From a virus, in IMG/VR virus record IMGVR_UViG_3300033233_000020, positions 1-64,000 of that record: 64,000 nucleotides of DNA. The stretch is one strand, 5' to 3'. The position numbers and the translations under genes are program-made. The notes below the pieces were generated by a model. That model saw nothing but the letters and a program-made list of their open reading frames with translations. It was not told the origin of the DNA and did no database searches. Below, one piece after another: positions 3,836 to 64,000 of this stretch (position 1 is its first letter; each line of letters starts with the position of its first letter).

Positions 3836-5200
3836 ATGACCTACAAAGACTTCCTAGACCAAAAGACACACGAGGGCGCAACGCACGGGTTTGAACCTGT
3901 GTTCATGCCCAACCAACTGTTTGATTTCCAGCAATCGCTGGTGGATTGGGCTGTGCGCAAGGGTCGCGCTGCGATCTTTGCTGACTGCGGACTCGGCAAG
4001 ACCGCCATGCAGCTCACATGGGCTGAGAACGTGGCGCGCCACACTGGTAAGCCGGTGCTGATCTTGACGCCCTTGGCTGTTGCTGCGCAAACTATTCGCG
4101 AGGGTGAGAAGTTTGGCATTGAATGCGCCCGATCCTCCGATGGCGCTATCAACAGCCGCATCGTGATCACCAACTACGAGCGGCTTGAGCATTTCAAACC
4201 GGCTGGCTTTGCCGGCGTGGTCTGCGATGAGAGCAGCATCCTTAAGAGCTTCGACGGCGCCCGCCGCAATGAGATCACCGATTTCATGCGCAAGGTGCCC
4301 TACCGACTACTAGCCACCGCCACTGCTGCGCCTAACGACTTCATTGAACTAGGCACCAGCTCTGAAGCCCTTGGCTACATGGGCCACATGGACATGCTCG
4401 CCCGGTTCTTCAAGAACGATCAGAACAATTTGACTAGCCGCCGCATGTACGGCGAGGCGCCCAAATGGCGCTTCAAGGGTCACGCTGAGCAGCCGTTTTG
4501 GAGGTGGGTTACCAGCTGGGCTAGGGCGTGCCGCCAGCCATCAGACCTTGGCTTTGATGATGGCCGGTTTACTTTGCCGCCACTGAAGGAGATTGACCAC
4601 CTGATTGAGACCAGCACCATTCCCGAGGGGATGCTGTTTGCCATACCAGCAACAGACCTAAGGGAGCAACGCGCTGAAAAGAAACGCACGGTTGTGGAGC
4701 GATGCGAGCAAGTGGCCAGCATGGTTGCCGATACTGGCCAGCCGGCGCTGGTGTGGTGCCATTTGAACGAAGAGGGCGACCTGCTAGAGCGGCTGATACC
4801 AGGCGCGATACAGGTATCTGGCAAAGATAAAGATGAGGCCAAGGAGCGCCGGTTAATTGATTTTGCGGAAGGCAGATCGCGAGTATTGGTTACCAAGCCA
4901 AAGATCGGCGCATGGGGGTTAAATTTTCAAGTTTGCAGCCATGTGACTTATTTTCCGTCTCATAGCTTTGAGCAGTATTACCAATCCGTCAGGCGTTGTT
5001 GGCGGTTTGGGCAAAAAAACTCTGTGACTGTTGACATCATCCTCACAGAGGGAGAGCGGCGAATTATGCAAAATCTACACCGCAAGCGGCTGCAGGCTGA
5101 GCAAATGTTTGGCAACCTAGTTGCTGAAATGAATCACTCGCTGGACATCCAGCGCAAAGAATACAACACCACTCCTATTGAGGTTCCATCATGGCTATGA
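3836..5200 (+). CDS. SNF2-family helicase
   Basis: ADCGLGKT, VCDESS, ATATAAPND, GLNFQ, YYQSVRRCWRFGQ motifs. Confidence 0.9.
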   Translation: MTYKDFLDQKTHEGATHGFEPVFMPNQLFDFQQSLVDWAVRKGRAAIFADCGLGKTAMQLTWAENVARHTGKPVLILTPLAVAAQTIREGEKFGIECARSSDGAINSRIVITNYERLEHFKPAGFAGVVCDESSILKSFDGARRNEITDFMRKVPYRLLATATAAPNDFIELGTSSEALGYMGHMDMLARFFKNDQNNLTSRRMYGEAPKWRFKGHAEQPFWRWVTSWARACRQPSDLGFDDGRFTLPPLKEIDHLIETSTIPEGMLFAIPATDLREQRAEKKRTVVERCEQVASMVADTGQPALVWCHLNEEGDLLERLIPGAIQVSGKDKDEAKERRLIDFAEGRSRVLVTKPKIGAWGLNFQVCSHVTYFPSHSFEQYYQSVRRCWRFGQKNSVTVDIILTEGERRIMQNLHRKRLQAEQMFGNLVAEMNHSLDIQRKEYNTTPIEVPSWL

Positions 5201-51542: not shown

Positions 51543-51778
51543 TAGCTATTTTCCTTTTCAGATTTTTTCTTCTTATGTAAGCCTACTAGCGTTTGACGCA
51601 ACCGCGCTTGTTTCACCGTTTTTTCGTCATACTTATCAGGGCTGCCCAATACGTTTGACTGAAGTTGTGCCGATGTGATACCACGGCGCTTTGCTTTTGC
51701 TGTAAATGCACCTTCCTTCATCTCAGTCTTTTGAATCCACTTCTTATCTTTTTTCTTTTTATTGTCAGCCATGATCAA
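51542..51778 (-). CDS. Small basic phage protein
   Basis: KKWIQK...KEGAFTAKAK...KQARL..TL motif. Confidence 0.65.
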   Translation of the reverse strand: MIMADNKKKKDKKWIQKTEMKEGAFTAKAKRRGITSAQLQSNVLGSPDKYDEKTVKQARLRQTLVGLHKKKKSEKENS

Positions 51779-54700
51779 CCCCTCTGGTAAAACACATTGC
51801 GTTGAATGGGTTTTACAGTCTGACTTAGTGGAACCATTCTACCCTGCCTACGCACCATACGTTCCTTGGGTTGACGATCAGCAAAACTCCAAGTATCGAC
51901 TTCATCTTCGTCAAGTAAATCTTTACGTGGATTCTTTTTAAGCACGTAGTTTTCTGCTGTATCCCGCTCCAAGGCTTTTGTATAGAAATCTAAAGCAGAG
52001 TCAGGTGTGTAACCCCTGGGCGAAAGGGGATTAGTTTCCAGTACTCCTGGTATCACGGGTTGATCACTCCCTCCTGGTACGCGCACTTTATTTATTGCTC
52101 TGTTAATAGTCGGCCCCGGTTGTACACCGCGCTTATAAGCAGCTTGTGCCATCAGTTTATTACCAAAATCCTGAAGTTGTGCACCAGTTGTACCATAACG
52201 GGAAACAGTTTCTGATTCACTCAGGTTACCAAGGCCAGCGGGGATAACCCCCATGCCTTCACCAAGATTTAACGCACCACGAACAACGCGTCCCCCAGGA
52301 GTTAAGTTTGCATTTAAAGCAAGTTGATTACGCTCTTGTAATTGACGTTGAGAAGTTGGTTCAAGTAAAACTTTAAGTTGCCCTGGAGTATACTGATAGT
52401 TTCCTTCAAGGACACGAGATGCAGGCCCCGATGCAGCAGCGGCTGATCCTGTGTATGGATTAGACGTACGTGCTGTAGAACCTGTGCTAATTCTTGCGTT
52501 TCTAGCTCCAGGGGTTTCCATTTCCCTGCGTAACTTAGACATCAAGGAACCAACTTGAGTATTAGCTGTTCCCGTAAAATTAACACCTTGATTTTGTGCT
52601 AATTCAATAAGCCTTTGTTGGGAAGTAGTACTTATACGTGGCGTAAAGAACGCAACGTTTCTTTTATCCGGATAATCTTCCCCAATGGTCATGGGATCAA
52701 CACCACCGCCACCCGTGGTTTCATAACGCCCTGGGATTGGAATTTTTTCATCATCAGTTGCATATACAATGTAACCGCCCCGATTAGTTACCATCTTGCC
52801 TTTTTCATCGCGCAAAGGAACTAATCGACCATCTGAATCAACTTTAAATTTCTTACCGTAAACCGGAGTATTTTTTTCAGTTTTTAAAAGATTCATTGCA
52901 AACGTAGTACCGGCTTTGTCTATACCGTAATCACCTTCTTTTAAAATAGGAAGATTAATTCCTTTTTTATTCATCAAGAAATTATCAATTCTTTCTGTAA
53001 TAAAATTTTGATAATGATAAGGCTCGCCTATATCAGCCAAGGTAAGACCTTGCTTAAGTCCTGTGGTTAATAGCTCCGGATCTACACGCCGCAGATAAGC
53101 AGCCTTTTCTTTGGGATTATTGAAATATGCGTCTTTAGCAGCTTCTGCTTCATCCTGTAGTTCAGAACGAGATAAAGTTAGTTTTGTAAGGGGCGCATTT
53201 GGAACATCAACAAAGGGACTGCCTGCCGCATCTGGCTTAACGCCAGGAATGCGACTACGACGATAACCAACTAATGGCTCTTCTTCGTCCAGGAGTTCTT
53301 TACCTGGTGCAGAATACAACAAACCATCATCACCCTTTATTACACCTGAATTCTTTCGCCATTCTGATACTGGTTGGGTCGTGAGAAACTGGCTAACATT
53401 AACTTGATCTGATTGAGAACCACCAACAAGCTTGCTTCCCTGTGTGTTGATATCTGCAGATACTACCCTTTTGTTTTGCCGATTACCGACTTCAAGCGAT
53501 TTAAGATAGCTGCTCAAATTAGCATCAGCATTTAATTTACCTTTTAATGCATTTGCTTCTTCAAAAGAAATAGCATCAGCATTTAATAAAGCGTTGATGT
53601 TTTTAATTTCTTCTTCATAACTTGGCGCGGCAACTATACCTCTCGTCTGAGCATTATCTGCATCCCGGCGCAAGGGAAGAACAACGTCCTGGAACCGCTC
53701 CTCACGTTCAGATCCAGAAGCAGCCCCTCTCATTGTTTGGGTAGCTCCAGGGATCATAGTTGTTCCTTGGTTGGTTTTTTCTTTAAACGCTTCTGTCTCA
53801 ATTAAAAGATTACCAACACCTTCCGTGTCTCCATATTCAGCGCCACCATACTTACCGCCCGTCATCACTTCGGTTGGATCAATATTTACATCATCAACCA
53901 TTTGAACAAAATTACCTGTATTGGGATCACGTACAAGACCTGCTTCATTTAACTGTTCTATTTGCCTGAGTTGCTGCCAATCTGTAGTGTCAACAAGATT
54001 TGTCAACCCTTCACCACCAGCGCCTCTGGTCTGTTTGGAATAAGTAGGACTACCTGGCATCGAAGCTGCTGCGCCACCAGCAATTTCAAAGGTTGGGTTT
54101 GCACTCACACGACCCGCTCGCTCCTCAGGGGCTTCTCCAAGATACTTTTTAAGATCTTCAGTTTTGATATTAGGATTCAGAAACATATCTCGCATTTCCC
54201 TTGGATAAGACACCGAAGCCATGGTGCGATCTAGGATCTCTTGCGGGCTAAGACGATTTATACCAATGCCTTCACGTCCAGCAGAATCAGAAAATTCAGC
54301 AAGCCTGACTTGATTCCCACGAACGTTTACTCCTAATGCTCTTAATTTTTTAGCATCTTCAGCAGAGCGAAGTGAAAGAGTACCTGTTAAGTCAGCAGCA
54401 ATTCTACCACCTTTTTCGTAGATATTTTCTTGATACCTTCGATTTGCATTTCCCATCTCTTCTAACAGTTCTTCTGTCTCCCAAGGGTTACTTGTAAGTA
54501 CGGAGGGCTTCCTTTTAACTTGATCAACAGGGGAACCATCTGGTAATTGAGAAGCAACGCGAGCAGCTTCAGCAGAAACATTTTCTGCTTGTCGACTAAA
54601 CCTTACAAAATCGGTATCTGGTTTGGTGTGTTGCGTGACGTTCCCAGTAGTTTGGTCAACAGGAACACCATCTGGTAATTGAGAAGCAACACGATTGATT

Positions 54701-55350
54701 GGCTCATCTTGCTCCATCATCCAATTACGTTGCTCACTTGCAATATCTTCAAGTATTTCAATTTGGCCTAGATCAAGATCTTCATTACGTTGTAATTGAT
54801 TTTTTACACGGCCTGTTGCTTGGTCTTCCCCAGACTCCAAAGCAGCTATAGCTTGTCTTACATTGAACCCACCAGTTGTCTGTTGTTGATCAACAAGAGT
54901 ATTGGCGATATCTACTTTGCTAAGAACATCAGCCACTGCATCATCAACTGCGGAGCTAATATCCACTGCTTGTTTTACAGGTGCTACTGGAGCATCCATA
55001 ACGACTTTTGAAGGTGCTACGGATGTTGGTTTGGTCCTCCCGGCTTCCCTTATTTGTTCTGTGTCATATTTTGATAAATCAAATGAGGAAACACCCGACT
55101 GACCGGTCGCCTTGCCAGATCGCAACATGCGTCGAGCAGCAAGACCTGCTCCAGTAAGCCCAGCAAGACCTAAACCTATTCCAAGTCCAAGAGCTAAGGG
55201 GTTGCTGTTACTGGATTCTTGTGATTTAAGTTGATTGCGCCGAAATTCCAAAACCTCAGGCGCTTGTTGAGCACGTTCTTCCGGTGATTCTGGGTAAGGT
55301 TGTCCCGTTGCACGGGAATAAGCGTAAAAATCAGCAGGAGCAAGTGCCAC
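51775..55350 (-). CDS. Very large hypothetical protein (internal virion/ejection candidate)
   Basis: 1191-aa ORF; N-terminal TM-like LGLGIGLGLAGL; internal repeat RVASQLPDG.PVDQ occurs twice. Confidence 0.75.
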   Translation of the reverse strand: MALAPADFYAYSRATGQPYPESPEERAQQAPEVLEFRRNQLKSQESSNSNPLALGLGIGLGLAGLTGAGLAARRMLRSGKATGQSGVSSFDLSKYDTEQIREAGRTKPTSVAPSKVVMDAPVAPVKQAVDISSAVDDAVADVLSKVDIANTLVDQQQTTGGFNVRQAIAALESGEDQATGRVKNQLQRNEDLDLGQIEILEDIASEQRNWMMEQDEPINRVASQLPDGVPVDQTTGNVTQHTKPDTDFVRFSRQAENVSAEAARVASQLPDGSPVDQVKRKPSVLTSNPWETEELLEEMGNANRRYQENIYEKGGRIAADLTGTLSLRSAEDAKKLRALGVNVRGNQVRLAEFSDSAGREGIGINRLSPQEILDRTMASVSYPREMRDMFLNPNIKTEDLKKYLGEAPEERAGRVSANPTFEIAGGAAASMPGSPTYSKQTRGAGGEGLTNLVDTTDWQQLRQIEQLNEAGLVRDPNTGNFVQMVDDVNIDPTEVMTGGKYGGAEYGDTEGVGNLLIETEAFKEKTNQGTTMIPGATQTMRGAASGSEREERFQDVVLPLRRDADNAQTRGIVAAPSYEEEIKNINALLNADAISFEEANALKGKLNADANLSSYLKSLEVGNRQNKRVVSADINTQGSKLVGGSQSDQVNVSQFLTTQPVSEWRKNSGVIKGDDGLLYSAPGKELLDEEEPLVGYRRSRIPGVKPDAAGSPFVDVPNAPLTKLTLSRSELQDEAEAAKDAYFNNPKEKAAYLRRVDPELLTTGLKQGLTLADIGEPYHYQNFITERIDNFLMNKKGINLPILKEGDYGIDKAGTTFAMNLLKTEKNTPVYGKKFKVDSDGRLVPLRDEKGKMVTNRGGYIVYATDDEKIPIPGRYETTGGGGVDPMTIGEDYPDKRNVAFFTPRISTTSQQRLIELAQNQGVNFTGTANTQVGSLMSKLRREMETPGARNARISTGSTARTSNPYTGSAAAASGPASRVLEGNYQYTPGQLKVLLEPTSQRQLQERNQLALNANLTPGGRVVRGALNLGEGMGVIPAGLGNLSESETVSRYGTTGAQLQDFGNKLMAQAAYKRGVQPGPTINRAINKVRVPGGSDQPVIPGVLETNPLSPRGYTPDSALDFYTKALERDTAENYVLKKNPRKDLLDEDEVDTWSFADRQPKERMVRRQGRMVPLSQTVKPIQRNVFYQRG

Positions 55351-55453: not shown

Positions 55454-55684
55454 ATGCCAAGATATGGTGAAAAGACAGACAACGATATGTTGTTTGAACG
55501 CGCAGTTGCCTTTAAGGCTATCGCTACCAAGGCAGAAGAGCTTGGGGAAAAAGGAGCACTACCTTTTGAAGTACGTTCTTTCATCCAAGGGGCAAATAAA
55601 GAACTTGCAAATCAAGTGCCTGACCCTGAAATGTACAGCAAAGCGTTAAAAGTTGCAGCAACACAAAAAGTTAACAGAAGTTAA
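55454..55684 (+). CDS. Hypothetical protein
   Basis: ORF divergent from the late block. Confidence 0.55.
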   Translation: MPRYGEKTDNDMLFERAVAFKAIATKAEELGEKGALPFEVRSFIQGANKELANQVPDPEMYSKALKVAATQKVNRS

Positions 55685-55940
55685 ATAAAATAAACGCAAA
55701 TTTGGGGTAAAAATTAGGGCTAAGGCCCTTTTTTACTGACATTTTTTAATGTAAATAATTTTTTATAGTTTTTATTCAACATGTAATCTGTATTTGTACT
55801 AGGACGTTTTTGTACATACAAAAAGCCTCACTTTTTTACCTATTAGGGGTAAGATTTACTCAACCCTTCTCACATACCCTACCCGAATATAAGTACGTAG
55901 AGAAAAAAAGAAAGGCGGGATGGGTTGAATAAGAGTAACG

Positions 55941-55980
55941 GGGGCTGCGCATCCGAGCAACGCAGAAAACCAACGCACTT
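55941..55980 (+). repeat. Leader repeat family IV, copy 1 (GGGGCTGCGCATC..CGCAGA..CAAC.CACTT)
   Basis: Second copy at 56405-56440; CTGCG/CGCAG stem in both. Confidence 0.7.
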
Positions 55981-55988
55981 TCAGTCAA

Positions 55989-56279
55989 ATGACACCAGCA
56001 ACAACAGCAACAGCACCAACAGCTAAGTGGAAGCATAACTGGCGTGAATCAACTGGCAACAGGCCAGTAGACGCCAAGCTTTTCCACAGCTATGTGGAAC
56101 AAGCGTATGAATTACTTAAGGAGTTTACTTCAGCAGACTTCTTATACCACGATGTGCGAGAGGTTTGCCAACCACAGTATCTGTTCAGTGTCGTATCTGA
56201 CATGACTGAGTGTAAGCTCAGCATGAAGATATATAACACTGAGTCAGGACTACGCGTCATTACCATCCATAAGGTATAA
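55989..56279 (+). CDS. Early hypothetical protein
   Basis: First ORF of the + strand early block. Confidence 0.6.
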   Translation: MTPATTATAPTAKWKHNWRESTGNRPVDAKLFHSYVEQAYELLKEFTSADFLYHDVREVCQPQYLFSVVSDMTECKLSMKIYNTESGLRVITIHKV

Positions 56280-56373
56280 TACCAGCCAATAAGCTGTCGT
56301 TCACCCCAAACCCCTTGCTATCACTACGTTCTTATACCCATTTAGGCTAAGTATCTAGGTGGGGCAAATAAGA

Positions 56374-56402
56374 TTGTCGTAGCAATTAGGGCTATGTATA
56401 AA
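56374..56402 (+). promoter_or_regulatory. Putative early promoter TTGTCG-17-TATAAA
   Basis: Directly precedes leader repeat IV copy 2. Confidence 0.5.
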
Positions 56403-56404
56403 CA

Positions 56405-56440
56405 GGGGCTGCGCATCTGTAACACGCAGACAACTCACTT
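56405..56440 (+). repeat. Leader repeat family IV, copy 2
   Basis: GGGGCTGCGCATCTGTAACACGCAGACAACTCACTT. Confidence 0.7.
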
Positions 56441-56453
56441 GCCTATCAACATC

Positions 56454-56675
56454 ATGGATTACAACTTTTGGGATCCTAGTAAAGACTCCCTTTGGGGAGT
56501 TTACGAGAAAGGACAATGCGTTTATGTTTATTGCTCCAAGCTTGAAGCTCAATTTGCTGCCGAAGACATTGGCGGTCAATTGGTTGAAGTCAGCAATCAA
56601 GAGCTGCCAGACTTTTGGTTTTACAACGCAGGTCTCAATTTAATTCGCACAGGTTGTTATCACCAAGTCTACTGA
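56454..56675 (+). CDS. Early hypothetical protein
   Basis: ATG after the leader repeat. Confidence 0.55.
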   Translation: MDYNFWDPSKDSLWGVYEKGQCVYVYCSKLEAQFAAEDIGGQLVEVSNQELPDFWFYNAGLNLIRTGCYHQVY

Positions 56676-56748
56676 ACTGTAGTACTCCGTTTGCGGAGGG
56701 CCAGGTGCAACTCCTGGCTTCAGTTATTGCCTCCAGCGGAGATAGGCA
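56671..56748 (+). ncRNA. Structured repeat family I (T-loop three-way junction + hairpin), copy 1
   Basis: AACTG/CAGTT; CTCCG-TTTG-CGGAG; GCCAGG-TGCAACT-CCTGGC. Confidence 0.65.
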
Positions 56749-56768
56749 CCGCACACACGGAGAACACC

Positions 56769-56987
56769 GTGACCAACACTACTACAGCTACACTTCCTAC
56801 CAGGGAAGAGCTAGCTAACACGGCCTACGATCTCATCCAGTTCTGGATGGAGTCAGGCCACTCGCAACTACTAAGCCGTGAGCAAGCACTTGAGATTGCC
56901 GCATGGGGTCTCAAGATTGCTGGCGAACGCGAGTTGCAAGCCCAAGTTCTTGCGGAGCTTGTAGAGCTTCCCGAGAACTACGGCTGA
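56769..56987 (+). CDS. Early hypothetical protein
   Basis: GGAG RBS then GTG; bounded by family I repeats. Confidence 0.55.
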   Translation: MTNTTTATLPTREELANTAYDLIQFWMESGHSQLLSREQALEIAAWGLKIAGERELQAQVLAELVELPENYG

Positions 56988-57050
56988 TCCGTCAAAGCGG
57001 AAGGCAGGGTGCAATTCCCTGCTCAGCAATTACCACTCACTGAGAGTGGT
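56983..57050 (+). ncRNA. Structured repeat family I, copy 2
   Basis: GCTGA/TCAGC; TCCG/CGGA; GCAGGG-TGCAATT-CCCTGC; ACCACTC-ACTGA-GAGTGGT. Confidence 0.7.
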
Positions 57051-57063
57051 CAACTCAACCGTC

Positions 57064-57252
57064 ATGTCTAACTACAAAACATTCAGCTTCGCTGTCACAG
57101 GCGTTGTAGCAACCATGGCTATTGTTTGTCACCTTGGTGTACAAGCACTAGACAAGGCTACAGCCGAACAATGCAAGACACATGCATGGCCTCAGGTTGC
57201 ACATCAAGTCCACATGGACTGGTGTGCAGACAATGGCTATGCAACCAACTGA
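57064..57252 (+). CDS. Small membrane-anchored early protein
   Basis: TM helix then QCKTHAWP...WC..NGY. Confidence 0.6.
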   Translation: MSNYKTFSFAVTGVVATMAIVCHLGVQALDKATAEQCKTHAWPQVAHQVHMDWCADNGYATN

Positions 57253-57317
57253 GTCCGTAAACACGGCACTGGGAGGTGTAAGTCCTCCCCCAGTTATTAC
57301 CACCCACTGAGGGTGGT
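57247..57317 (+). ncRNA. Structured repeat family I, copy 3
   Basis: AACTG/CAGTT; CCGT/ACGG; GGGAGG-TGTAAGT-CCTCCC; ACCACCC-ACTGA-GGGTGGT. Confidence 0.7.
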
Positions 57318-57330
57318 TACACCACTGACC

Positions 57331-57483
57331 ATGGCTATCCGCAAAGCTATCGCCACTCAACTCTCCAATGCTGCCAAGGCTTTGGAGAAAGACCAGACTA
57401 AAGAGCAAGCCGGTAGGTTAATCAACAGCATGCGCATTGGCTTAGCTAATGTCATCATGCCTAACATACCGCTGGCTAAATAG
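57331..57483 (+). CDS. Small early protein, 50 aa
   Basis: MAIRKAIATQLSNAAK...; follows family I copy 3. Confidence 0.55.
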   Translation: MAIRKAIATQLSNAAKALEKDQTKEQAGRLINSMRIGLANVIMPNIPLAK

Positions 57484-57543
57484 TACGCACGTACTACTCC
57501 CCTCCCACCCGCAAGGGTGGGCACACACCCCTAACTAATCACC

Positions 57544-57729
57544 ATGCTTCAACCTATTCTTGCGATTGTCATGGGCACTGGTGCTGGCATGCTTCTAACC
57601 GTCGCCGGGCAGAAGCTACTCAACCAGCATTACCAGGAAACATGCCCATCCAAACCTACACATCAGCTAGTATCTATCACCAGCTTTATCGGTGATGCAG
57701 ACTACTGTATCAACAAGAGTTGGCTCTGA
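57544..57729 (+). CDS. Small membrane early protein
   Basis: N-terminal hydrophobic helix. Confidence 0.55.
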   Translation: MLQPILAIVMGTGAGMLLTVAGQKLLNQHYQETCPSKPTHQLVSITSFIGDADYCINKSWL

Positions 57730-57736
57730 CACTTCT

Positions 57737-57763
57737 TGTCCTAAGCATGACATTAAACTGCTA
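57737..57763 (+). ncRNA. Pseudoknot repeat family II, copy 1
   Basis: TGTC-CTAAGCAT-GACA-TTAAAC-TGCT. Confidence 0.65.
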
Positions 57764-57791
57764 CCAACTCAACCTAACCCAACTAAAGACC

Positions 57792-58004
57792 ATGTCTCAA
57801 TCTATTTTCGAAATTGAAAACGCATACGTATGCGTCGTGAATGGTGAACCAGAACTATTTGAGACACAACAACAAGCAGAAGATCATGCCATGGAACTTA
57901 GCTTTGCATGGTATGACGCACAGCTTGATGTCCCTGCTCCGCGATTAGCAGTTATGTCAGTCACCAACTGGCTAAACCTGCAATCACGATTAGCACTCGT
58001 CTGA
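57792..58004 (+). CDS. Early hypothetical protein
   Basis: ATG downstream of the pseudoknot. Confidence 0.55.
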   Translation: MSQSIFEIENAYVCVVNGEPELFETQQQAEDHAMELSFAWYDAQLDVPAPRLAVMSVTNWLNLQSRLALV

Positions 58005-58058
58005 TGTTTGCCCAGAGGGCTTCGGCCCTCTCTGCAGATTTCATATCTGCTACTCAAC
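58001..58058 (+). ncRNA. Twin-hairpin repeat family III, copy 1
   Basis: AGAGGGC-TTCG-GCCCTCT; GCAGAT-TTCAT-ATCTGC. Confidence 0.55.
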
Positions 58059-58077
58059 TACAACCCAACTAGGAACT

Positions 58078-58320
58078 ATGTCTCCTTCAAGCGTTGAACA
58101 TCTACTCACCCAGCAAGCTCGCCTTCTGGCACGTAGAGAAACACCAGTCATCGACCAAGAGCTTGAGAACTTACGCCAATCGGCATTGGAAGTATTCTTC
58201 CAGTGGCAAGATGGCTTATGTGAGTTCCAAGATCTAACACCTTTCGTTGCCATCCTTGAGAAGAAGGTTGATCTCAACCAGTCACTACTCAAGTGGGAAC
58301 AAGAACACATCACTGACTGA
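58078..58320 (+). CDS. Early hypothetical protein
   Basis: ORF with AGGA upstream. Confidence 0.6.
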   Translation: MSPSSVEHLLTQQARLLARRETPVIDQELENLRQSALEVFFQWQDGLCEFQDLTPFVAILEKKVDLNQSLLKWEQEHITD

Positions 58321-58322
58321 TC

Positions 58323-58496
58323 ATGGAACAGTTAACTCTTCAACAAACGGCATTACTCAACCGTTACCACCGTATTTATGCGGCATGGTTAAAGGTTGAG
58401 ACTTATGAAATGGATGTCATGCTCTGCGCAGCTTACGCTTCCGCACTTGACACCTGCCTTGCTGCTGACTTTAATCCTTTTGATTACCCTGAATAG
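58323..58496 (+). CDS. Small early protein
   Basis: 57-aa ORF filling the gap. Confidence 0.5.
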   Translation: MEQLTLQQTALLNRYHRIYAAWLKVETYEMDVMLCAAYASALDTCLAADFNPFDYPE

Positions 58497-58497
58497 A

Positions 58498-58560
58498 CTG
58501 ATCTCTGCACTTAACCCTGAGTAACACCAGGGCTTTCTGCAGGGTTCACCCCTGCTCAAC
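58498..58560 (+). ncRNA. Twin-hairpin repeat family III, copy 2
   Basis: CCCTG/CAGGG; GCAGGG-TTCAC-CCCTGC. Confidence 0.55.
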
Positions 58561-58581
58561 ACTCACATCATTCACAGCACC

Positions 58582-58815
58582 ATGAAAGCATTACTCCTTG
58601 CATTAGTTCTGACAACACCCGCCATTGCTCAATCTATTGATCCTATTGCATATGGCGAAAGGTATTGTCTATTACGTAAATTGAATATTGATTCTGCAAC
58701 GGCACGTAAAACTGCTGTTGAATACAGCTATGATACACACCGTAGCCTGGTAAATAGCAAAGAAGATATTTCTGCTGCTGCTAAATACACAGTTAAGAAC
58801 TGTCCTGACTTCTAA
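58582..58815 (+). CDS. Small secreted-type early protein
   Basis: Signal peptide MKALLLALVLTTPAIA. Confidence 0.65.
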   Translation: MKALLLALVLTTPAIAQSIDPIAYGERYCLLRKLNIDSATARKTAVEYSYDTHRSLVNSKEDISAAAKYTVKNCPDF

Positions 58816-58844
58816 CCTGAACTACTCACACCTTTGTTAACAGC

Positions 58845-59036
58845 ATGAAACAAATCATCTCACTTGGTAACAACCGCTACATTCACCTAGACACTTATGG
58901 TGGATACAGGGAATCCCCTCTGTCTAAACTCGTCATGACAACCCTTGTACTAGCTATTGCAGGAATTACTGCAGGAGCTATGGTTGGCATTGACAGCACC
59001 AAGATCAACCCACCTACTCAACACCAAACCAAATGA
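58845..59036 (+). CDS. Small membrane protein
   Basis: TM helix. Confidence 0.55.
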   Translation: MKQIISLGNNRYIHLDTYGGYRESPLSKLVMTTLVLAIAGITAGAMVGIDSTKINPPTQHQTK

Positions 59037-59266
59037 ACACCTATGTAGCACTCATTGCAGATGACAGTGGCAGATACTGTCACGTCTATGGCACTGCAAA
59101 CACATGGCATAATTACGTAGACCAACTCGAAGAGCTGGGCTGCGAAGTTGTCGAAAATCAAACCGACGACTATGACATACAAGACCTTGGTACCATCGAC
59201 GATGAAATAGGCGTGGTACCCATCACCAAGCTACTAACATCCACTGACTTTATCCCCTGCAGATAA
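59033..59266 (+). CDS. Early hypothetical protein
   Basis: Coupled ORF. Confidence 0.55.
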   Translation: MNTYVALIADDSGRYCHVYGTANTWHNYVDQLEELGCEVVENQTDDYDIQDLGTIDDEIGVVPITKLLTSTDFIPCR

Positions 59267-59640
59267 TGAATAACCCACAACATCCCATCACCCCACCGCC
59301 GGAGCTGGTGCAGCAGTGGTTGTGCTCAGACGACTACCTGTGGGGTCCGCTTGAGCAGACGTCCATCACCATCACGACCAACCGGCTCCAGAACGTCGCC
59401 GCCCAAGCCGCCCAATGGGGCGCCGACCAGGAGCTGGAGGGGTGTTGTAGGTGGTTGCCGAAGCTACCCCCGTGGAGCGCAAACGACCTGCGCAAGCATC
59501 GCCGCCCCAAGCCGCCGAGCTTGAAGGAGCAGGCGCTAACTGCGCTACACGCTGTTGCAACAGGATCTAATGACACCCGTGAGCAACACCAAGACCTTGA
59601 CACTATTCGCCAAGCATTAGAGGCATTACCTAATGACTGA
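59266..59640 (+). CDS. GC-rich mosaic cyanophage protein (ITPPPELVQQW...AAQWGADQELE...RPKPPSLKEQAL)
   Basis: Locally GC-rich; shares 22 bp with 11602-11623. Confidence 0.7.
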   Translation: MNNPQHPITPPPELVQQWLCSDDYLWGPLEQTSITITTNRLQNVAAQAAQWGADQELEGCCRWLPKLPPWSANDLRKHRRPKPPSLKEQALTALHAVATGSNDTREQHQDLDTIRQALEALPND

Positions 59641-59842
59641 ACGTGAAAACTTCTACAAGTGGATAAAAACCTGTCCACTTACTGACTACAAAATATGTGA
59701 GGCAACTCTAACTTCTGTGTCATATGAATTTAACTTCAACACTGTTGAACCAGACATTGATCAACTCATTGATGATGTATTGATTCATCTAGAGAAATAG
59801 CCAATACTACCCATGTATTGGCACATCTTCTAATACATAACC

Positions 59843-59869
59843 AGACCTGAGCATGTCTATAAACTGCTC
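59843..59869 (+). ncRNA. Pseudoknot repeat family II, copy 2
   Basis: AGAC-CTGAGCAT-GTCT-ATAAAC-TGCTC, with a compensatory stem change relative to other copies. Confidence 0.7.
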
Positions 59870-59900
59870 CGCAAAACCCACATTCAATCCCCTGCAAATC

Positions 59901-60101
59901 ATGCAATCAACCTCTGACTTCATTGATGAGCAACGCAATGCTGACATGCTTGATGCACTGGCAGACATTGCATACGAACAAGAACAAGCTATGCGTGAAT
60001 CCGAGCAAAGCGATTGGGATGGCATCGATGAAATATCTGATGCCGAACGCAATGCTTGTGATCACTACAACGAACGTTATGTAATCACTACCCATGACTA
60101 A
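59901..60101 (+). CDS. Acidic early protein
   Basis: ATG after the pseudoknot. Confidence 0.55.
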   Translation: MQSTSDFIDEQRNADMLDALADIAYEQEQAMRESEQSDWDGIDEISDAERNACDHYNERYVITTHD

Positions 60102-60191
60102 CAAAGCACCACAAGATGAGGATCTAATACTCATCGCTGTAGCAATCTGCTACACACTATTCACTTTACTATTCCAACTCATTTCAGAACT

Positions 60192-60551
60192 ATGGCACTC
60201 CTACCTGAACAACTACTCATTGCCGAAGTCGTTGGCTACGAACCCGTCACCAATGACGAAGGCATGCAACAATACCCAGCCGACGTTGACTTTCAAGATG
60301 CACCCAAAGGTGCCATCCCCTGTACAGGAAACGTCTACAAGAACAAGAAGGGCGTCCTCCGTTGCTACTGGATTCCAGCCGGTGGCAACTACTCGTCAGA
60401 GGAAGGGGACGAACTCACAGGTTGGTACGACGTACCTGACCTCGAAGACATCGAAGAATGGACTTTCGACTCAGTCTGCTTCACACCCTGTGACGACGAA
60501 GTCGAACCTGACCACCCCGATAGCTGGCTAAGTATCCTTGGCCTTATCTAA
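60192..60551 (+). CDS. Acidic hypothetical protein
   Basis: EEWTFDSVCFTP.D.VEPDHPDSWLSILGLI C-terminus. Confidence 0.65.
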   Translation: MALLPEQLLIAEVVGYEPVTNDEGMQQYPADVDFQDAPKGAIPCTGNVYKNKKGVLRCYWIPAGGNYSSEEGDELTGWYDVPDLEDIEEWTFDSVCFTPCDDEVEPDHPDSWLSILGLI

Positions 60552-60568
60552 TTAATTAGATTACGCAT

Positions 60569-60775
60569 TTAAGGAGCAAACTTCTGCATTTGATTTAATA
60601 ATCTAATATCTGCTTGTTTTTTTATTACAGGAATGCTTTCATTATTTACAATAGACTCTAAAAAGCTTATCACTTTATCTTGCGATGGCATAGAACCATG
60701 AGCTTTCATGTATTCTTGTTGCCATCCTTGCAGAAAAGGACTATTACTTATTGAATATCGACCAGCAATTAACAT
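60569..60775 (-). CDS. AT-rich hypothetical protein, inverted in the early block
   Basis: The only plausible ORF in this gap. Confidence 0.4.
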   Translation of the reverse strand: MLIAGRYSISNSPFLQGWQQEYMKAHGSMPSQDKVISFLESIVNNESIPVIKKQADIRLLNQMQKFAP

Positions 60776-60881
60776 CTTATTTACACTATAGATGTTAATA
60801 TTTTAACCCTGGGCAACCACAATCGCTAAGCACATAGCTTAGAAAGATATGGTGTAAGTCCCAGGATCAACCCTCAATTCA

Positions 60882-61166
60882 ATGCAAACCTACCCCGAGT
60901 ATCCAGTGTCTGACCACGCAAACATCCTACGCATCATCAAGGAACTCAACGAGATCCTTACACGTGAATCCAAGCGTTACGAAATGGATGAGCACCTGAC
61001 TCCATCTATGCGCAGCTTATTGGAGGAGGAGATCATTCCTGCACTAGAGAATGAAATCAATTGGGAACCAAGTGATGCAGACCTTGGCTATGGTGGTGAA
61101 CCACCTATGACTGCTGATGAAATGCACACTGCTGCATGGCAACAGCACCAAGAACTACATAGGTGA
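60882..61166 (+). CDS. Early hypothetical protein
   Basis: ORF after a structured leader. Confidence 0.6.
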   Translation: MQTYPEYPVSDHANILRIIKELNEILTRESKRYEMDEHLTPSMRSLLEEEIIPALENEINWEPSDADLGYGGEPPMTADEMHTAAWQQHQELHR

Positions 61167-61209
61167 GATACTTGTAATCCGAGTAACTACCATCTATTCA
61201 TAATCCGAA

Positions 61210-61268
61210 TAACAAAGGGCTGGTACGCATTAGTACCTAAGCCTGGTGCGGCCAGGCACCCTTTGTTA
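61210..61268 (+). ncRNA. Candidate three-way-junction RNA in a non-coding gap
   Basis: TAACAAAGGG/CCCTTTGTTA closes GGTAC/GTACC and GCCTGG/CCAGGC hairpins. Confidence 0.5.
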
Positions 61269-61525
61269 AACGACGGAATCCCAACGGGAAGAATAGATCA
61301 CTGGCCAGTGAGGTCTCGAGAACCACACAAAGTCTAACTTTTAATCAAACTTAACTAACTCAGTACAAATACCCAATGAGACTAAGAGATCCCCCCTGCA
61401 CCCCCCTGGCAACCCACCACCAGCACTATTAGATTTAGAAGTAAGTCCCATGTAATACACATAAGACTTACTTGCTCTTCCTTGACATCCCTGATAGACT
61501 ACCAACTCATTCACCCACTCATCTC

Positions 61526-61753
61526 ATGCCACTCATGTCACCACTCAACGACGCACCTAAGCCACGCATTCCAGATGCCATCGACAAGCAACGGCTGCAA
61601 GCAATGCAGCTCGTAGCAAAGATGAAAGAATCTGCGGATAAGTACGGCGTTGGTTTCGTCGGCGGCTTCATCAGCCCCAACGGACAAAAGTTCATGATGA
61701 CAAACATGAACGAAGATGACACCAACGCACTCTTGCCGGATGACCTTAAGTGA
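61526..61753 (+). CDS. Early hypothetical protein
   Basis: Follows a TTGCTC-17-TAGACT promoter-like sequence at 61472-61500. Confidence 0.6.
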   Translation: MPLMSPLNDAPKPRIPDAIDKQRLQAMQLVAKMKESADKYGVGFVGGFISPNGQKFMMTNMNEDDTNALLPDDLK

Positions 61754-61989
61754 TTTACAAATCAATCACTGATCGTTACGAAAAGATATGGCAGATTACT
61801 GCAGAGGTAATTGCCCATCCTCACCGTACGATTACACCTCATGACAAACATCGTGCAACCGTTCTCATCAGCTTCTTATCCGGAGATGATGAGATGGTTG
61901 AATACATTCATTCTCAAATGAATGAAGATGATTTCAAACAGACCAAACAAATCCGCACCTTTGTACATGACAAAAAAATCACCCATTAA
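61750..61989 (+). CDS. Early hypothetical protein
   Basis: Coupled ORF. Confidence 0.5.
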   Translation: MIYKSITDRYEKIWQITAEVIAHPHRTITPHDKHRATVLISFLSGDDEMVEYIHSQMNEDDFKQTKQIRTFVHDKKITH

Positions 61990-62164
61990 CTTTGACAGAA
62001 CCATCGCAGGTGTCAACATCACCGAGAATGGTATCAAGTCGTACACTAAATCGTTTCAGCTTGGTCCCTTCCAGCTGACACTTAATGCTCGTGACTCTGG
62101 CGTACATGGATCTATATCCTTGCCAGGCACAGGCTTGAGTAAGAGAAACATTAAGATAATCTAA
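61967..62164 (+). CDS. DUF4236-like protein
   Basis: KSFQLGPFQLTLN...SISLPGTGLS. Confidence 0.6.
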   Translation: MTKKSPINFDRTIAGVNITENGIKSYTKSFQLGPFQLTLNARDSGVHGSISLPGTGLSKRNIKII

Positions 62165-62168
62165 AGAT

Positions 62169-62197
62169 ACGTCCTGAGTATGACGTTAAACTGCTCA
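62169..62197 (+). ncRNA. Pseudoknot repeat family II, copy 3
   Basis: ACGTC-CTGAGTAT-GACGT-TAAAC-TGCTCA. Confidence 0.75.
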
Positions 62198-62222
62198 TCA
62201 CTCACCTTCAACTACCACTGCA

Positions 62223-62417
62223 ATGACTACAGCAAAACCATTTGAATCTAATCTCAACATACTTGACCGCGTTCATGTTGCAAATTGTGCAGCAGAACGT
62301 GCACGTATGTACTGCACCGATACCGAAAGGTTCAACGGTGAGTTTGCTACAGTACGCATGTGGACAAACTACAAGTGTTTCATCTCGAACTACGGTAGCT
62401 ACGTAGAAACTTACTAA
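62223..62417 (+). CDS. Early hypothetical protein
   Basis: ORF after the pseudoknot. Confidence 0.55.
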   Translation: MTTAKPFESNLNILDRVHVANCAAERARMYCTDTERFNGEFATVRMWTNYKCFISNYGSYVETY

Positions 62418-62674
62418 TGTCTGTCTTATCTATTCACGACACATCAATTGATAACAACCATGTCACAGTTACAGCAGTTGTGGAAGACATGCATCTCCTA
62501 CGCAGAGCAACTCGCGATGACCCTGATCAATGGGGTCCAGGCCTTTGTTCAACATCTTTTGAACTGGCTGACGACCAATCAATCCCTACTGATGAAGATG
62601 GCTTCTGCAGCTATCTTGATCAGCTTGACCCCCAATGGCAACTCGTTGACCTCTCTGATCGCTACCTAACATGA
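62417..62674 (+). CDS. Early hypothetical protein
   Basis: Coupled ORF. Confidence 0.6.
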   Translation: MSVLSIHDTSIDNNHVTVTAVVEDMHLLRRATRDDPDQWGPGLCSTSFELADDQSIPTDEDGFCSYLDQLDPQWQLVDLSDRYLT

Positions 62675-62874
62675 TTGGCTTCTCCTTTGAATTCAAACGA
62701 TGGTATGTAGTAGTACGTGGCCCCAAGGGTACCGTCTACTTAGCCTTTGGCTTTGCTAAGCAAATGCCTGTGTTCACACCAGCTAAAACTATGACTCTCC
62801 AAGAGTACATAGATGATTACAATGATGCCATCGTATTCACTAACGAAAGTGGTGAAGAGTTAATGCGCATCTAA
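62671..62874 (+). CDS. Early hypothetical protein
   Basis: Coupled ORF. Confidence 0.55.
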   Translation: MIGFSFEFKRWYVVVRGPKGTVYLAFGFAKQMPVFTPAKTMTLQEYIDDYNDAIVFTNESGEELMRI

Positions 62875-62878
62875 TCTA

Positions 62879-62907
62879 ACGTCCTGAGTATGACGTTAAA
62901 CTGCTCA
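62879..62907 (+). ncRNA. Pseudoknot repeat family II, copy 4 (identical to copy 3)
   Basis: Exact 29-bp repeat of 62169-62197. Confidence 0.75.
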
Positions 62908-62933
62908 CACAATAAATCCACCCTTAACTCACC

Positions 62934-64000
62934 ATGCAGTTCCAACTACCCACAAATTTACAAACTGAGTTGATTGCGTATGATCCACAGCTCAAGGCTT
63001 TGGCTCGTACTCAAAAGCAATCAACAACCAAGAAATCTAAATACCCACTGGGTAATCCTATTGATCTTATCCCTAATGAAATCATTACAGCAGAGAGAGT
63101 ACAAGATGCCATTGATGCAATCAACAAGGCACCAGCCCCTGGTCGTTACCGCGAGTTCACCAAAGTAACGTCGACAGGTACAATAACCCACGCAGTCCTT
63201 TACCACTACGAACAAGTATGGTACGCAGCCTGGCTGCCACCTAAGGGCAAGGAAGCTGACTATATCTATGGCTATACCTATGCATACAAAGATACAGCTA
63301 CTGTACGCAAGTTATTGCCACGTGCTTTAAACATGGCAAAAGATGATTGTGTAAACAAACCATCTGGTAGATGTACGTTTGTTACTTATACACAACAAGT
63401 AACCAAACAAGATGTCATCAATGGAAGAGATACATATAATTGGAACATACCAAACATGCAACGATACGCGCAAAAATCACAAAATATGCGCGAACCTATT
63501 GATCGTTTTGAAAACCAAATTGAAATGTCTATACCTCAATGGAAAGACTCTAGAAATATATTCGAACGTATCAAAACCACATGTATTGCAGAGTTATTTA
63601 CACGTGATTTCCATACTGAATACTGGAAAGACATAAACAAATCCAAGTGGTTACCTTCTGTTGATATTATCTTTAGCTTTATTAACAACCAAGATGTACA
63701 CAGCTCATACAACTTATTCGCTGAAGATCTTTATGGTTATAAAAGTATCTTGCACATATTAGATACACCATACTTTCGTAAGTGGATCCAAAACAAATGC
63801 AATGAATCTATAGAATCATTTAACAATCCAGATACTGATACAAAGATATCAATTACACAACCATGGCTTATGATCTTTCATCTGTGTAAACAGATCAAAA
63901 CCGTACACAATATCTGGGGAAATGCATGTCCTCTTGATTACTATCAAACAAACCTCAATGCTTTACTCAGTGTTAGTTATAACTCTGGTTACAGTAAAGA
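62934..64000 (+). CDS. Large hypothetical protein (truncated by window edge)
   Basis: Not in the ORF track; frame is open from ATG 62934 (MQFQLPTNLQTELIAYDP...) to the window end by hand translation. Confidence 0.75.
   Translation, partial: MQFQLPTNLQTELIAYDPQLKALARTQKQSTTKKSKYPLGNPIDLIPNEIITAERVQDAIDAINKAPAPGRYREFTKVTSTGTITHAVLYHYEQVWYAAWLPPKGKEADYIYGYTYAYKDTATVRKLLPRALNMAKDDCVNKPSGRCTFVTYTQQVTKQDVINGRDTYNWNIPNMQRYAQKSQNMREPIDRFENQIEMSIPQWKDSRNIFERIKTTCIAELFTRDFHTEYWKDINKSKWLPSVDIIFSFINNQDVHSSYNLFAEDLYGYKSILHILDTPYFRKWIQNKCNESIESFNNPDTDTKISITQPWLMIFHLCKQIKTVHNIWGNACPLDYYQTNLNALLSVSYNSGYSK

Follow-up and report, generated by a model that had tools for sequence, protein, structure and literature searches.

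INTRODUCTION

Coremin, also classed as xrRNA-C, is a compact exoribonuclease-resistant RNA (xrRNA) of benyviruses, cucumoviruses and many other eukaryotic RNA viruses (PMC6546385, PMC10520033), and it is the closest described counterpart of an RNA element that we report here from a phage. In coremin (GUCCGAAGACGUUAAACUAC), a 4-base-pair (bp) hairpin (hp1) with a YGAD tetraloop is joined by a conserved spacer of 8–10 nucleotides (nt) to a second hairpin (hp2); YGNNAD hexaloops and an octaloop are also functional, the octaloop having been tested as a single natural example (GRV) (PMC10520033). Coremin stalls Xrn1 one nucleotide 5′ of hp1, and also stalls scanning ribosomes in vitro (PMC10520033). 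Mutagenesis established that A15–A17 and C18U19 are essential, that U13U14 is tolerant of change and that a pyrimidine-purine loop-closing pair is required; the authors proposed, without proof, a pseudoknot between loop and spacer with A-minor contacts (PMC6546385). The phage element, which we call family II, is one of four families of repeated structured RNAs (I–IV) that lie among small early genes in the window analyzed here, the first 64,000 nt (bases 1–64000) of the 95,070-bp IMG/VR virus record IMGVR_UViG_3300033233_000020, which derives from a freshwater cyanophage of the S-EIV1 type.

Other described systems also bear on these elements. In the xrRNAs of dianthoviruses and poleroviruses, the loop pairs with the 3′ flank, the resulting pseudoknot rings the 5′ end, and compensatory mutations rescue the RNA (bioRxiv 10.1101/262683). 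Plant-virus and flavivirus xrRNAs block the bacterial enzyme RNase J1 in vitro (bioRxiv 10.1101/262683; PMC8374639), and RNase J is present in cyanobacteria (PMC12464536), as in Firmicutes. The gene 32 operator of phages T2 and T4 is a pseudoknot with two coaxially stacked helices and two loops, and downstream of it comes an unstructured leader with UUAAA repeats; RNase E cuts just 5′ of the pseudoknot, and the processed mRNA is the most stable of T4 (PMC3014915). Finally, the PeSL cassettes of T4-type phages, which carry promoter and terminator motifs, provide a precedent for the shuffling of genes by repeated elements (PMC2839356, PMC4122927).

RESULTS

Family II is a pseudoknot that recurs on the coding strand

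A preliminary description of this region had placed strand-specific structured RNAs, comprising four repeat families and several single folds, between the cistrons. We found every one of these repeats at its reported position, with some boundaries refined (for example, 57504–57521 for a fold noted as 57481–57521), and the strand-specific, intercistronic character of the elements was borne out. The folds assigned to family II are indeed present; each is, however, a 28-nt H-type pseudoknot and not a plain hairpin, and four additional copies lie beyond the window. The layout is S1 (A)CGUC, L1 C, S2a UGRRYA, L2 U, S1b GACG(U), L3 UUAAAC and S2b UGYYCA, such that stem S2 (4–6 bp) joins the hairpin loop to the six bases 3′ of UUAAAC, with a 1-nt L1, a single variable base as L2 and an A-rich L3. 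The loop segment UGRRYA is complementary to the six bases after UUAAAC in every copy.

A genome-wide search with a strict family II pattern yielded six copies on the + strand and none on the − strand, while a structural scan recovered eight copies, all on the + strand and four of them in the window. The remaining copies (68299, 71430, 72765 and 75714) precede genes for a GP88-like protein, an SSB (single-stranded DNA-binding) protein and a DUF5895 protein, plus one further gene. Two of the genome's copies are UAAAAC variants. Synechococcus phage S-EIV1 itself has at least five copies in a single orientation.

To assess the structure, we aligned 64 distinct copies from this genome, S-EIV1 and 28 relatives, which had been collected through their PcfJ-like protein (34–94% identical among them). 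In the 11-pair pseudoknot, 86.8% of the cells are paired, compared to 20–44% when the partners are slid against each other, and none of 500 shuffles reached the covariation score. Both stems covary: S1 pairs appear as CG, GC, UA and AU, and the stem variants GGAC/GUCC, UGUC/GACA and AGAC/GUCU retain pairing, while three S2 pairs have no unpaired cell at all (GC34/AU29, GC46/AU17 and CG41/UG23), the last of them using G-U in 23/64 copies. Three features argue that family II acts as RNA: duplex DNA could not form its interleaved helices, G-U pairing is common in it, and the copies occur on the coding strand only. The gaps that hold family II are no more stable than shuffled sequence (z = −0.2 to −1.9), since a pseudoknot is invisible to minimum-energy folding; by the same comparison, minimum-free-energy folds of the gaps with families I and III and the single hairpins gave z = −2.9 to −4.6.

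The position of the pseudoknot relative to the flanking genes is also constrained. The 3′ end lies 19–22 nt from the ATG in 51/83 lineage copies, and the intervening leader is depleted in G (4.8% vs 21.9% overall) and lacks a Shine-Dalgarno (SD) sequence. In about half of the copies S1 starts 3–5 nt past the upstream stop codon; for example, copy 3 begins 4 nt past the TAA at 62162–62164 and ends 25 nt ahead of the ATG at 62223. Two locations are kept in nearly all relatives, one before the PcfJ-like gene (copy 4) and the other before the SSB gene. Two further ideas about these sites were rejected. A small leader peptide beginning at an ATG in the family II loop is excluded by column 19, which is U, A or C, and by the early end of the frame; a −1 frameshift or readthrough at copy 4 is excluded by an in-frame TAA 6 nt before the ATG at 62934.

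The invariant core of family II coincides with the essential residues of coremin

We arrived at coremin through a full-text literature match to GACGUUAAAC. The hp1 stem CGUC/GACG and the 3′ spacer UUAAACU of coremin are identical to the family II core, and the correspondence extends to the mutagenesis data. The invariant columns of family II are UAAACUG (T25, A26, A27, A28, C29, T30 and G31), and these are the columns that correspond to the essential A15–A17 and C18U19 of coremin, whereas the tolerant U13 corresponds to the variable column 24. The family II columns agree with the coremin spacer definition G-UUAAACUAC. Likewise, the loop-closing pair (11–20) has the pyrimidine-purine form that hp1 requires, being C-G in 60 of the 64 copies and U-G in 3, and pair 9–22 is G-C in 58/64. 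The loop itself (C-U-G-R-R-Y-A-U, 8–10 nt) has Y first, A-D last and G third, and its middle bases pair with the 3′ flank. We conclude that family II contains a coremin-like core, from which nuclease resistance is predicted. The literature search found no paper linking coremin or xrRNAs to phages.

The preliminary description had been unable to assign the repeats to a named family. The window copies do match no Rfam model, as its proposed Rfam check now shows: there were no matches in the window at gathering score, only noise in 55600–63000 at E ≤ 5, and no match to GP20-b, RAGATH, preQ1 or pistol models in 62150–62930 (781 nt) at E ≤ 10. Nevertheless, family II does have named relatives, namely coremin/xrRNA-C and, more distantly, GP20-b and RAGATH-1. 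The Rfam consensus of GP20-b (RF03003), GUC...GNCG-UAAAA, has a loop paired to bases past the A-run, as in family II, but adds a second hairpin and precedes phage GP20 scaffold genes; the GP20-b model scored 17.8 bits on an Enterococcus copy of the knot, compared to a gathering score of 36.2. The 5′ hairpin of the RAGATH-1 hammerhead (RF03152) in an uncultured Eubacteriales contig (L182) reads CGUC-N8-GACG-UUAAAAU, like the S1 module of family II. In contrast to both, UUAAAC is present in the cyanophage form, which lacks a second hairpin and is not joined to a ribozyme. The literature search found no function for RAGATH-1 or GP20-b, and none is assigned in Rfam.

The same contig carries a genuine RAGATH-1 hammerhead ribozyme (4534–4620, 68 bits) about 600 nt from a family II-type knot, which suggests that the CGUC-N8-GACG-UUAAAAU module is reused beside ribozymes. 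We rejected the 5′ half of the pistol ribozyme as an identity for family II, which lacks P3 and a cleavage site and gave no Rfam match; what the two have in common is presumably just ACGUUAAA.

The pseudoknot is widespread among phages and bacterial genomes

We scanned IMG/VR and species-representative genomes with a strict 19-base family II pattern. It occurs in more than 113 IMG/VR stretches at least, and in 37 stretches of species-representative genomes, where about 4 are expected by chance. These genomes include Enterococcus, Ruminococcus, Finegoldia, Selenomonadaceae, Saccharibacteria, Zixibacteria, Bacteroidetes, Geobacter and Spirochaetes, among others; no beta- or gammaproteobacteria appear among the matches listed that have S2 complementarity of at least 5/6. 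Complementarity at that level was found in 118/133 viral matches listed and 34/41 genome matches, compared to roughly 9% expected by chance, and four of the six S2 pairs covary strongly in these matches.

In gut and Firmicutes phages the knot occupies the 5′ untranslated region (UTR) of head-scaffold genes from two PHROG families. A compensated variant, CGAC/GUCG with UUAAAA, is present in the cultured Latilactobacillus phage TMW 1.591 P1, 2 nt past a stop codon and ahead of the scaffold gene. Firmicutes knots lie 12–55 nt or more from the AUG, and a normal SD is present. Phages of Enterococcus (L152 5396–5435, − strand) and Latilactobacillus (L353 1500–1546) have, directly after the knot, another hairpin (CGUGG...CCACG) and UAAAA(U), a tandem arrangement that resembles both the hp1-spacer-hp2 order of coremin and the Rfam GP20-b consensus.

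Families I and III incorporate or abut stop codons

Positions of the window's elements and of one gene cassette are collected in Table 1. The preliminary description stated that copies diverge yet keep their pairing; this proved correct for families I, II and III, which covary, but not for family IV, whose stem never varies. The covariation that it had proposed to look for is significant against shuffles for families I and II (0/500 each). As had been noted, no member of families I–IV has a U-run after it, which argues against intrinsic terminators.

Table 1. Coordinates of structured elements and of a gene cassette in the window (z, folding score relative to shuffles)
Feature	Position	Strand	Description
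Family II copy 1	57737..57764	+	S1 UGUC/GACA, L3 UUAAAC, weak S2 (4/6)
Family II copy 2	59843..59870	+	S1 AGAC/GUCU, S2 UGAGCA/UGCUCC
Family II copy 3	62169..62197	+	S1 ACGUC/GACGU, L1 C, S2 UGAGUA/UGCUCA, L3 UAAAC
Family II copy 4	62879..62907	+	Core identical to copy 3; ahead of 569-aa PcfJ-like gene
Family I copy 1	56671..56771	+	P1 ACUGA.../...UCAGU with upstream UGA, H1, H2 loop UGCAACU, AUUGCC linker
Family I copy 2	56982..57050	+	P1 CUGA/UCAG with stop codon, H1, H2 loop UGCAAUU, AUUACC; z = −3.98
Family I copy 3	57245..57317	+	P1 AACUG/CAGUU with stop codon, H1, H2 loop UGUAAGU, AUUACC; z = −4.35
Family III copy a	58001..58050	+	Strand A just after UGA, inner hairpin, middle strand UGCAGAU, strand B
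Family III copy b	58497..58556	+	A CUCUGCA, M UGCAGGG, B CCCUGC; z = −4.6
Family IV copy 1	55941..55965	+	GGGGCUGCGCAUCYG...CGCAG hairpin, ~24 nt before ATG 55989
Family IV copy 2 with upstream hexamers	56374..56429	+	TTGTCG-17-TATAAA, 2 nt, hairpin 56405–56429
Single hairpin	57504..57521	+	CCCACCC-GCAA-GGGUGGG; z = −4.0; conserved in S-EIV1 and L010
Single fold	60808..60865	+	Outer stem CCUGGG/CCCAGG, covarying inner stem and hairpin
Y-shaped two-hairpin RNA	61210..61268	+	Three helices covary in S-EIV1 and L011
Cassette	57776..58084	+	Gene 57792..58004 plus family III copy a; absent from L010 and S-EIV1

The 5′ domain of family I is a three-way junction in which the 5′ strand of P1 (4–6 bp) holds the upstream TGA, H1 is a small hairpin, and H2 (5–7 bp) closes a loop of 7 nt, either UGCAAAC or UGUAAGU, in keeping with the U...A pattern of a T-loop; a variant (d) has H2 as GGGGG-AUCGAAU-CCCCC. 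A gap of 0–1 nt separates H2 from the 3′ strand of P1, and P1 and H2 sum to about 11–12 bp in both variants. Among 40 copies, two-sided changes affect 14 of the 16 pairs, and the score was not reached by any of 500 shuffles. An invariant AUU-R-CC linker leads to a 3′ domain that comes in three interchangeable forms: the hairpin CCACNC-ACUGA-GNGUGG (x-type), the hairpin UGCCAC-AAUCCN-GUGGCA, and a small pseudoknot (y-type). The 3′ domains of copies 2 and 3 are x-type hairpins, CCACUC-ACUGA-GAGUGG and CCACCC-ACUGA-GGGUGG, respectively, while that of copy 1 is a y-type pseudoknot, UGCCU..GCGG..AGGCA.CCGC. Across 14 copies, every pair of the pseudoknot is formed (100%), and compensation is seen as GC/AU, as CG/UA and as a change of GCGG/CCGC to GUGG/CCAC; in copy 1 as elsewhere, a covarying hairpin comes next, which masks both the start codon (GUG in copy 1; GUG or AUG) and a GGAG SD. 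Relatives have 2–4 copies per genome, and the family I core pattern occurs in 107 IMG/VR stretches of sizes usual for the lineage. Likeness to tRNA is limited to the 7-nt U...A loop and the ~12-bp stack of P1 and H2. We rejected an identity as tRNA, since ARAGORN found no tRNA at the family I sites, either in the window or in the 16 relatives searched, and RF00005, the tRNA model of Rfam, gave no match to variant d at E ≤ 10 in 201 nt; "tRNA-like" is thus an analogy only.

Family III, of which we examined 12 copies, is a two-state fold. Its middle strand, UGCAGNN, pairs at 6–7 of 7 positions with a strand (A) that lies 2–5 nt past the stop codon, forming a helix that encloses a variable hairpin of 20–48 nt; it also pairs 6/6 with a strand (B) just downstream. 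The A:M and M:B helices are mutually exclusive, and all three strands covary. Since a terminating ribosome would cover the first strand, the fold probably reports translation of the upstream gene.

Family IV is found in 1–3 copies at the head of the early region in relatives, with none on the − strand, and its 25-mer pattern is present in 97 IMG/VR stretches. A conserved A-rich tract precedes copy 1. The stem is invariant and hence without covariation, so that a role at the level of either DNA or RNA is compatible with the data. The sigma-70-like hexamers upstream of copy 2 are kept in S-EIV1 (TTGTCG/TACAAC), not in L010, a close relative. From their arrangement, TTGTCG-17-TATAAA is likely an early promoter whose transcript would start with the family IV hairpin. 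Searches of the literature with strings from the family I and IV cores gave primer coincidences only, and did not cover the supplements of two motif catalogues (PMC10690425, PMC5737381).

The single folds that had been listed apart from the families are present and conserved, those at 60808 and 61210 with compensatory changes, and the fold at 60808 carries in an internal loop the UGUAAGU of the H2 loop of family I copy 3. The hairpin at 57504 lies between genes 57331..57483 and 57544..57729. The Y-shaped RNA occupies a 359-nt non-coding gap (61167–61525), which also holds a long hairpin at 61439–61473 and might represent a small RNA gene instead of a leader. On the + strand, a terminator scan gave sites only at 55716–29 and 61241–60, the latter being the second hairpin of the Y-shaped RNA, after which there is only CCCUUUGUU; the absence of U-tracts was therefore upheld for this fold as well.

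Breakpoints between related genomes fall at the elements

The preliminary description suggested that the repeats serve as homology anchors, and proposed that gain and loss breakpoints be sought at them in related genomes. Relative to L010, whose shared blocks are 88–94% identical, a 7-kb stretch differs by 10 or more events of insertion, deletion or replacement, and, in comparison to L010 and S-EIV1, several of the breakpoints are inside elements or in the duplicated leaders that follow them. One L010 breakpoint lies within family I copy 2, the 5′ domains being different and the 3′ hairpin shared. The cassette in Table 1 is flanked by a duplicated leader with first codons (57776–57798 and 58062–58084), and family III copy b is duplicated in L010 around an L010-specific gene. 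Thus, the breakpoints do coincide with the repeats, but we consider this a side effect: the covariation, strandedness and fixed spacing imply that recombination is not what selection maintains.

Other differences were seen in the same block. A 33%-GC insertion (60552–60804) with a 68-amino-acid (aa) open reading frame (ORF; 60569..60775, − strand) that has no Pfam match is absent from L010 and S-EIV1, whose flanks abut; this is perhaps a moron or mobile gene of recent acquisition. A GC-rich 124-aa gene (59266–59640) is missing from that place in L010, although pieces of it match L010 13066–13210, and the unrelated cyanophages S-CBS2 and S-RIP1 have nucleotide matches to it of 78–95%; the gene resembles a cassette that moves horizontally.

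Gene context

The elements punctuate a + strand block of about 24 small ORFs that begins at about 55.9 kb, and nine of these small early ORFs that we tested had no Pfam match. Between 55.7 and 63 kb the genome is 79% identical to the polar freshwater cyanophage S-EIV1 (KJ410740) across 58% of the length; the 95-kb record is 16 kb longer than S-EIV1. Downstream of the block lie the gene for the 569-aa PcfJ-like protein (62934..64643), a tRNA-Leu and replication genes, which are those for the GP88-like protein, DNA polymerase A, SSB, DUF5895 and primase. Along this operon the elements of relatives follow the order IV, I, III, II, with family II continuing through the replication genes. A scan of 30 ORFs, including all those above 500 aa, with Pfam and/or PHROGs yielded replication and structural proteins, the PcfJ-like protein and ORFans, and no phage RNA polymerase or sigma factor. 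A 1191-aa ORF (51775–55350, − strand) that adjoins the early region has no Pfam or PHROG match; a virion RNA polymerase was one identity that we considered for it. The tRNA-Leu(UAA), at 64900–64985 of the genome, directly 3′ of the PcfJ-like gene, is conserved across the lineage (ARAGORN); in the relative L009, the same program calls an odd tRNA whose anticodon has 2 bases (770–843, − strand).

DISCUSSION

Family II is a covarying pseudoknot whose invariant bases are those that coremin needs to resist an exonuclease, and families I, III and IV are new RNA families that occur across the lineage. The reading that we favor, and to which we give an even chance, is that these elements are cis-acting RNA roadblocks, stabilizers and insulators on long + strand early and middle transcripts. 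From the structures, their covariation, positions and spread, and the match to coremin, we infer the following biochemical steps. Family II would act as a one-way mechanical roadblock, at whose 5′ foot an enzyme tracking 5′ to 3′ from upstream halts; RNase J is a candidate, and scanning RNase E or post-termination ribosomes might perhaps be stopped as well. The cistron downstream would survive and keep a G-poor landing pad of ~20 nt for SD-less initiation, such that chosen cistrons (SSB here, the scaffold protein in Firmicutes phages) out-produce their upstream neighbors. Families I and III, composite modules specific to this lineage, whose 5′ strand contains or abuts the stop codon and which a terminating ribosome must therefore melt, probably couple translation or processing of the upstream gene to the stability or initiation of the next cistron, and the invariant single-stranded AUU between the two structured domains of family I is a candidate endonuclease site. 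Family IV would be the 5′-terminal hairpin of transcripts from the early promoter, and the recurring modules and leaders would also provide homology for the gain and loss of cassettes. The preliminary description had suggested that the elements cut or protect a long early transcript; of these, we retain protection, since family II matches coremin at the residues shown to be essential by mutagenesis.

Several observations weigh against this reading. The loop of coremin has G at position 2, while the 8-nt loop of family II has G at position 3, and the obligatory hp2 of coremin has no equivalent in family II. The spacing of the knot from the AUG suits a role in translation at least equally well, and a ribosome terminating 3–5 nt upstream must unfold the knot each time. 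Several Firmicutes knots sit 3–12 nt 3′ of an intrinsic terminator, and therefore only read-through RNA would carry them. RNase J was above cut-off in 3/5 knot-bearing genomes tested, in keeping with the roadblock reading, but not in the other 2/5, which are metagenome-assembled genomes of Zixibacteria and Bacteroidetes; RNase J thus cannot be the sole target. Finally, it is from geometry that we propose the functions of families I, III and IV.

The main rival is a role in translation: the pseudoknot, together with the hairpins at the 3′ side of families I and III, would be an operator or enhancer that binds a phage protein (for example, SSB, in the manner of T4 gene 32 autoregulation) or 30S/S1 and thereby controls initiation at the G-poor leader that has no SD. 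We consider this unlikely as the explanation, although it is a serious contender and may coexist with the roadblock role. The fixed distance from knot to AUG and the G-depleted leader are what such an operator would have, as are the copy before the SSB gene, the y-type copies of family I with their hairpin over the SD and start codon, the ability of coremin to block scanning ribosomes in vitro, and the precedent of the gene 32 operator, a pseudoknot with an unstructured UUAAA leader (PMC3014915). However, across phages of many phyla, with no obvious common regulator, the genes that have the knot ahead of them are numerous and unrelated, the distance to the AUG is loose and the SD normal in Firmicutes, and the invariant bases are those on which the exonuclease resistance of coremin depends. 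It is improbable, in our estimate, that the elements are instead processing signals, with family I recognized as tRNA-like by RNase P or RNase Z, or its AUU linker by RNase E, so that the transcript is cut into gene-sized pieces in the manner of mitochondrial tRNA punctuation. The T-loop-like H2 (UGCAAAC, and AUCGAAU in variant d), the tRNA-like gap of 0–1 nt between H2 and P1, the length of their stack and the invariance of the linker between two stable domains would all fit, but P1 is only 4–6 bp, both tRNA searches were negative, and cleavage by RNase P at P1 would strip the stop codon from the upstream mRNA.

That the repeats are primarily recombination cassettes, anchors for swapping small host-takeover genes as PeSLs are (PMC2839356, PMC4122927), appears quite improbable to us. 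The many rearrangements in 7 kb relative to a 93%-identical genome (L010), with several breakpoints in family I, family III or leaders, the duplicated leader around the cassette and the duplicated family III in L010 are as expected of such a system; in contrast, anchors need conserved sequence and not compensatory changes, and here sequence drifts while structure stays, strand and spacing to start and stop codons are fixed, and family II is common to unrelated phages that are unable to recombine together. We give very little weight to the possibility that family II marks DNA-level middle promoters, with TAAACT as a −10 box, and a recognition element upstream of it, for the host RNA polymerase and a phage factor. 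TAAACT does fit TAnnnT, all copies face genes 20–35 nt before their start codons, and other promoters are not evident, a sigma-70 scan of the region giving 12 sites compared to 16.4 in shuffled sequence (no enrichment). Nevertheless, S2 pairs across the would-be −10 box, covaries and frequently uses G-U, its helix interleaves with S1, there is no conserved −35 box, no phage polymerase or sigma factor appeared in the 30 ORFs scanned, and the same motif works as RNA in plant viruses. Least probable of all, and to our minds barely credible, is a ligand-sensing riboswitch like a minimal preQ1-I pseudoknot, or a put- or nut-like antitermination RNA. In its favor, multiple copies lie along one transcription unit, and the H-type topology with an A-rich L3 (AAACU) resembles preQ1-I. 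In family II, however, a single variable base as L2 leaves no binding pocket, no Rfam riboswitch matched, the downstream genes are mutually unrelated and the ribosome binding site is left free. A genome with put sites has two of them, beside promoters, whereas there are at least eight copies here, each tied at a fixed distance to a start codon, which argues against the put-like antitermination raised in the preliminary description.

If the knot does stop bacterial 5′-to-3′ decay, as the roadblock reading would have it, it would be the first xrRNA to be described from a source other than eukaryotic RNA viruses, it would supply a testable function for the GP20-b and RAGATH-1 hairpins, and it would explain how scaffold protein and SSB far exceed the products of the genes just upstream in their operons. 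A 28-nt portable stabilizer and insulator would also be useful for operon design in hosts that bear RNase J. The phage copies provide natural covariation for the loop-spacer pseudoknot that coremin mutagenesis left unresolved, and families I and III, with stop codons built into the structure, offer a good system in which to study ribosome-driven RNA switching and SD-poor translation in cyanobacteria. More speculatively, and we would call this possible but doubtful, a single knot (CGUC-loop-GACG-UUAAACU), proof against exoribonucleases and ribosomes, may be common to phages of many phyla and to plant and fungal RNA viruses, and may in the cyanophages be part of a "punctuation code". The other letters of the code would be T-loop three-way junctions that embed stops, two-state folds sensed by ribosomes and promoter-proximal caps, and the code as a whole would determine how long each cistron of the long early and middle transcripts lasts and how it is translated, without promoters or terminators between genes.

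Comparison with known systems

In the early region of T7, as here, structured RNA lies between the cistrons of a long early transcript. RNase III cleaves the T7 sites, which are irregular hairpins at least about 20 bp long, and the 3′ hairpins left by this processing make the mRNAs more stable. The helices of the present elements are in contrast 4–7 bp, with the longest 7–8 bp, and are pseudoknotted or multi-branched; with no long double-stranded RNA, they do not fit RNase III sites of the T7 type, which the preliminary description had offered as a model. Like PeSLs, the elements are short repeated regulatory sequences beside small variable early genes, with breakpoints inside them, but PeSLs are DNA motifs conserved in sequence, whereas these are covarying RNA folds without U-tracts, of which only family IV is plausibly linked to promoters, the hexamers being seen only before its copy 2.

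The pseudoknot of gene 32 in T2, T4 and RB69 is upstream of an SSB gene, as is one copy of family II, and its dimensions (1-nt loop 1, 7-bp stem 2 and 7-nt loop 2) are near those of family II. It is, however, a single-copy, gene 32-specific element, 67 nt from the AUG, that is bound by gp32 and is unrelated in sequence; family II is found at seven genes besides SSB, and the SSB here is of the bacterial OB-fold type (PF00436). The xrRNAs of dianthoviruses share with S2 of family II the pairing of loop and flank, which in family II is a full Watson-Crick helix of 4–6 bp, but the dianthovirus and polerovirus RNAs are ~44 nt, differ in sequence and have a P1 that must unwind.

Coremin remains the closest comparison. 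Both it and family II occupy intergenic regions and 5′ UTRs, and in family II the place of hp2 is taken by the 4–6 bases after UUAAAC, which pair with the loop, followed by the unstructured G-poor leader. Coremin belongs to eukaryotic RNA viruses and blocks Xrn1, whereas family II belongs to a double-stranded DNA bacteriophage, such that the enzyme it blocks, if any, cannot be Xrn1. Unlike coremin, family II is present in eight copies per genome, each fixed in its distance from a start codon.

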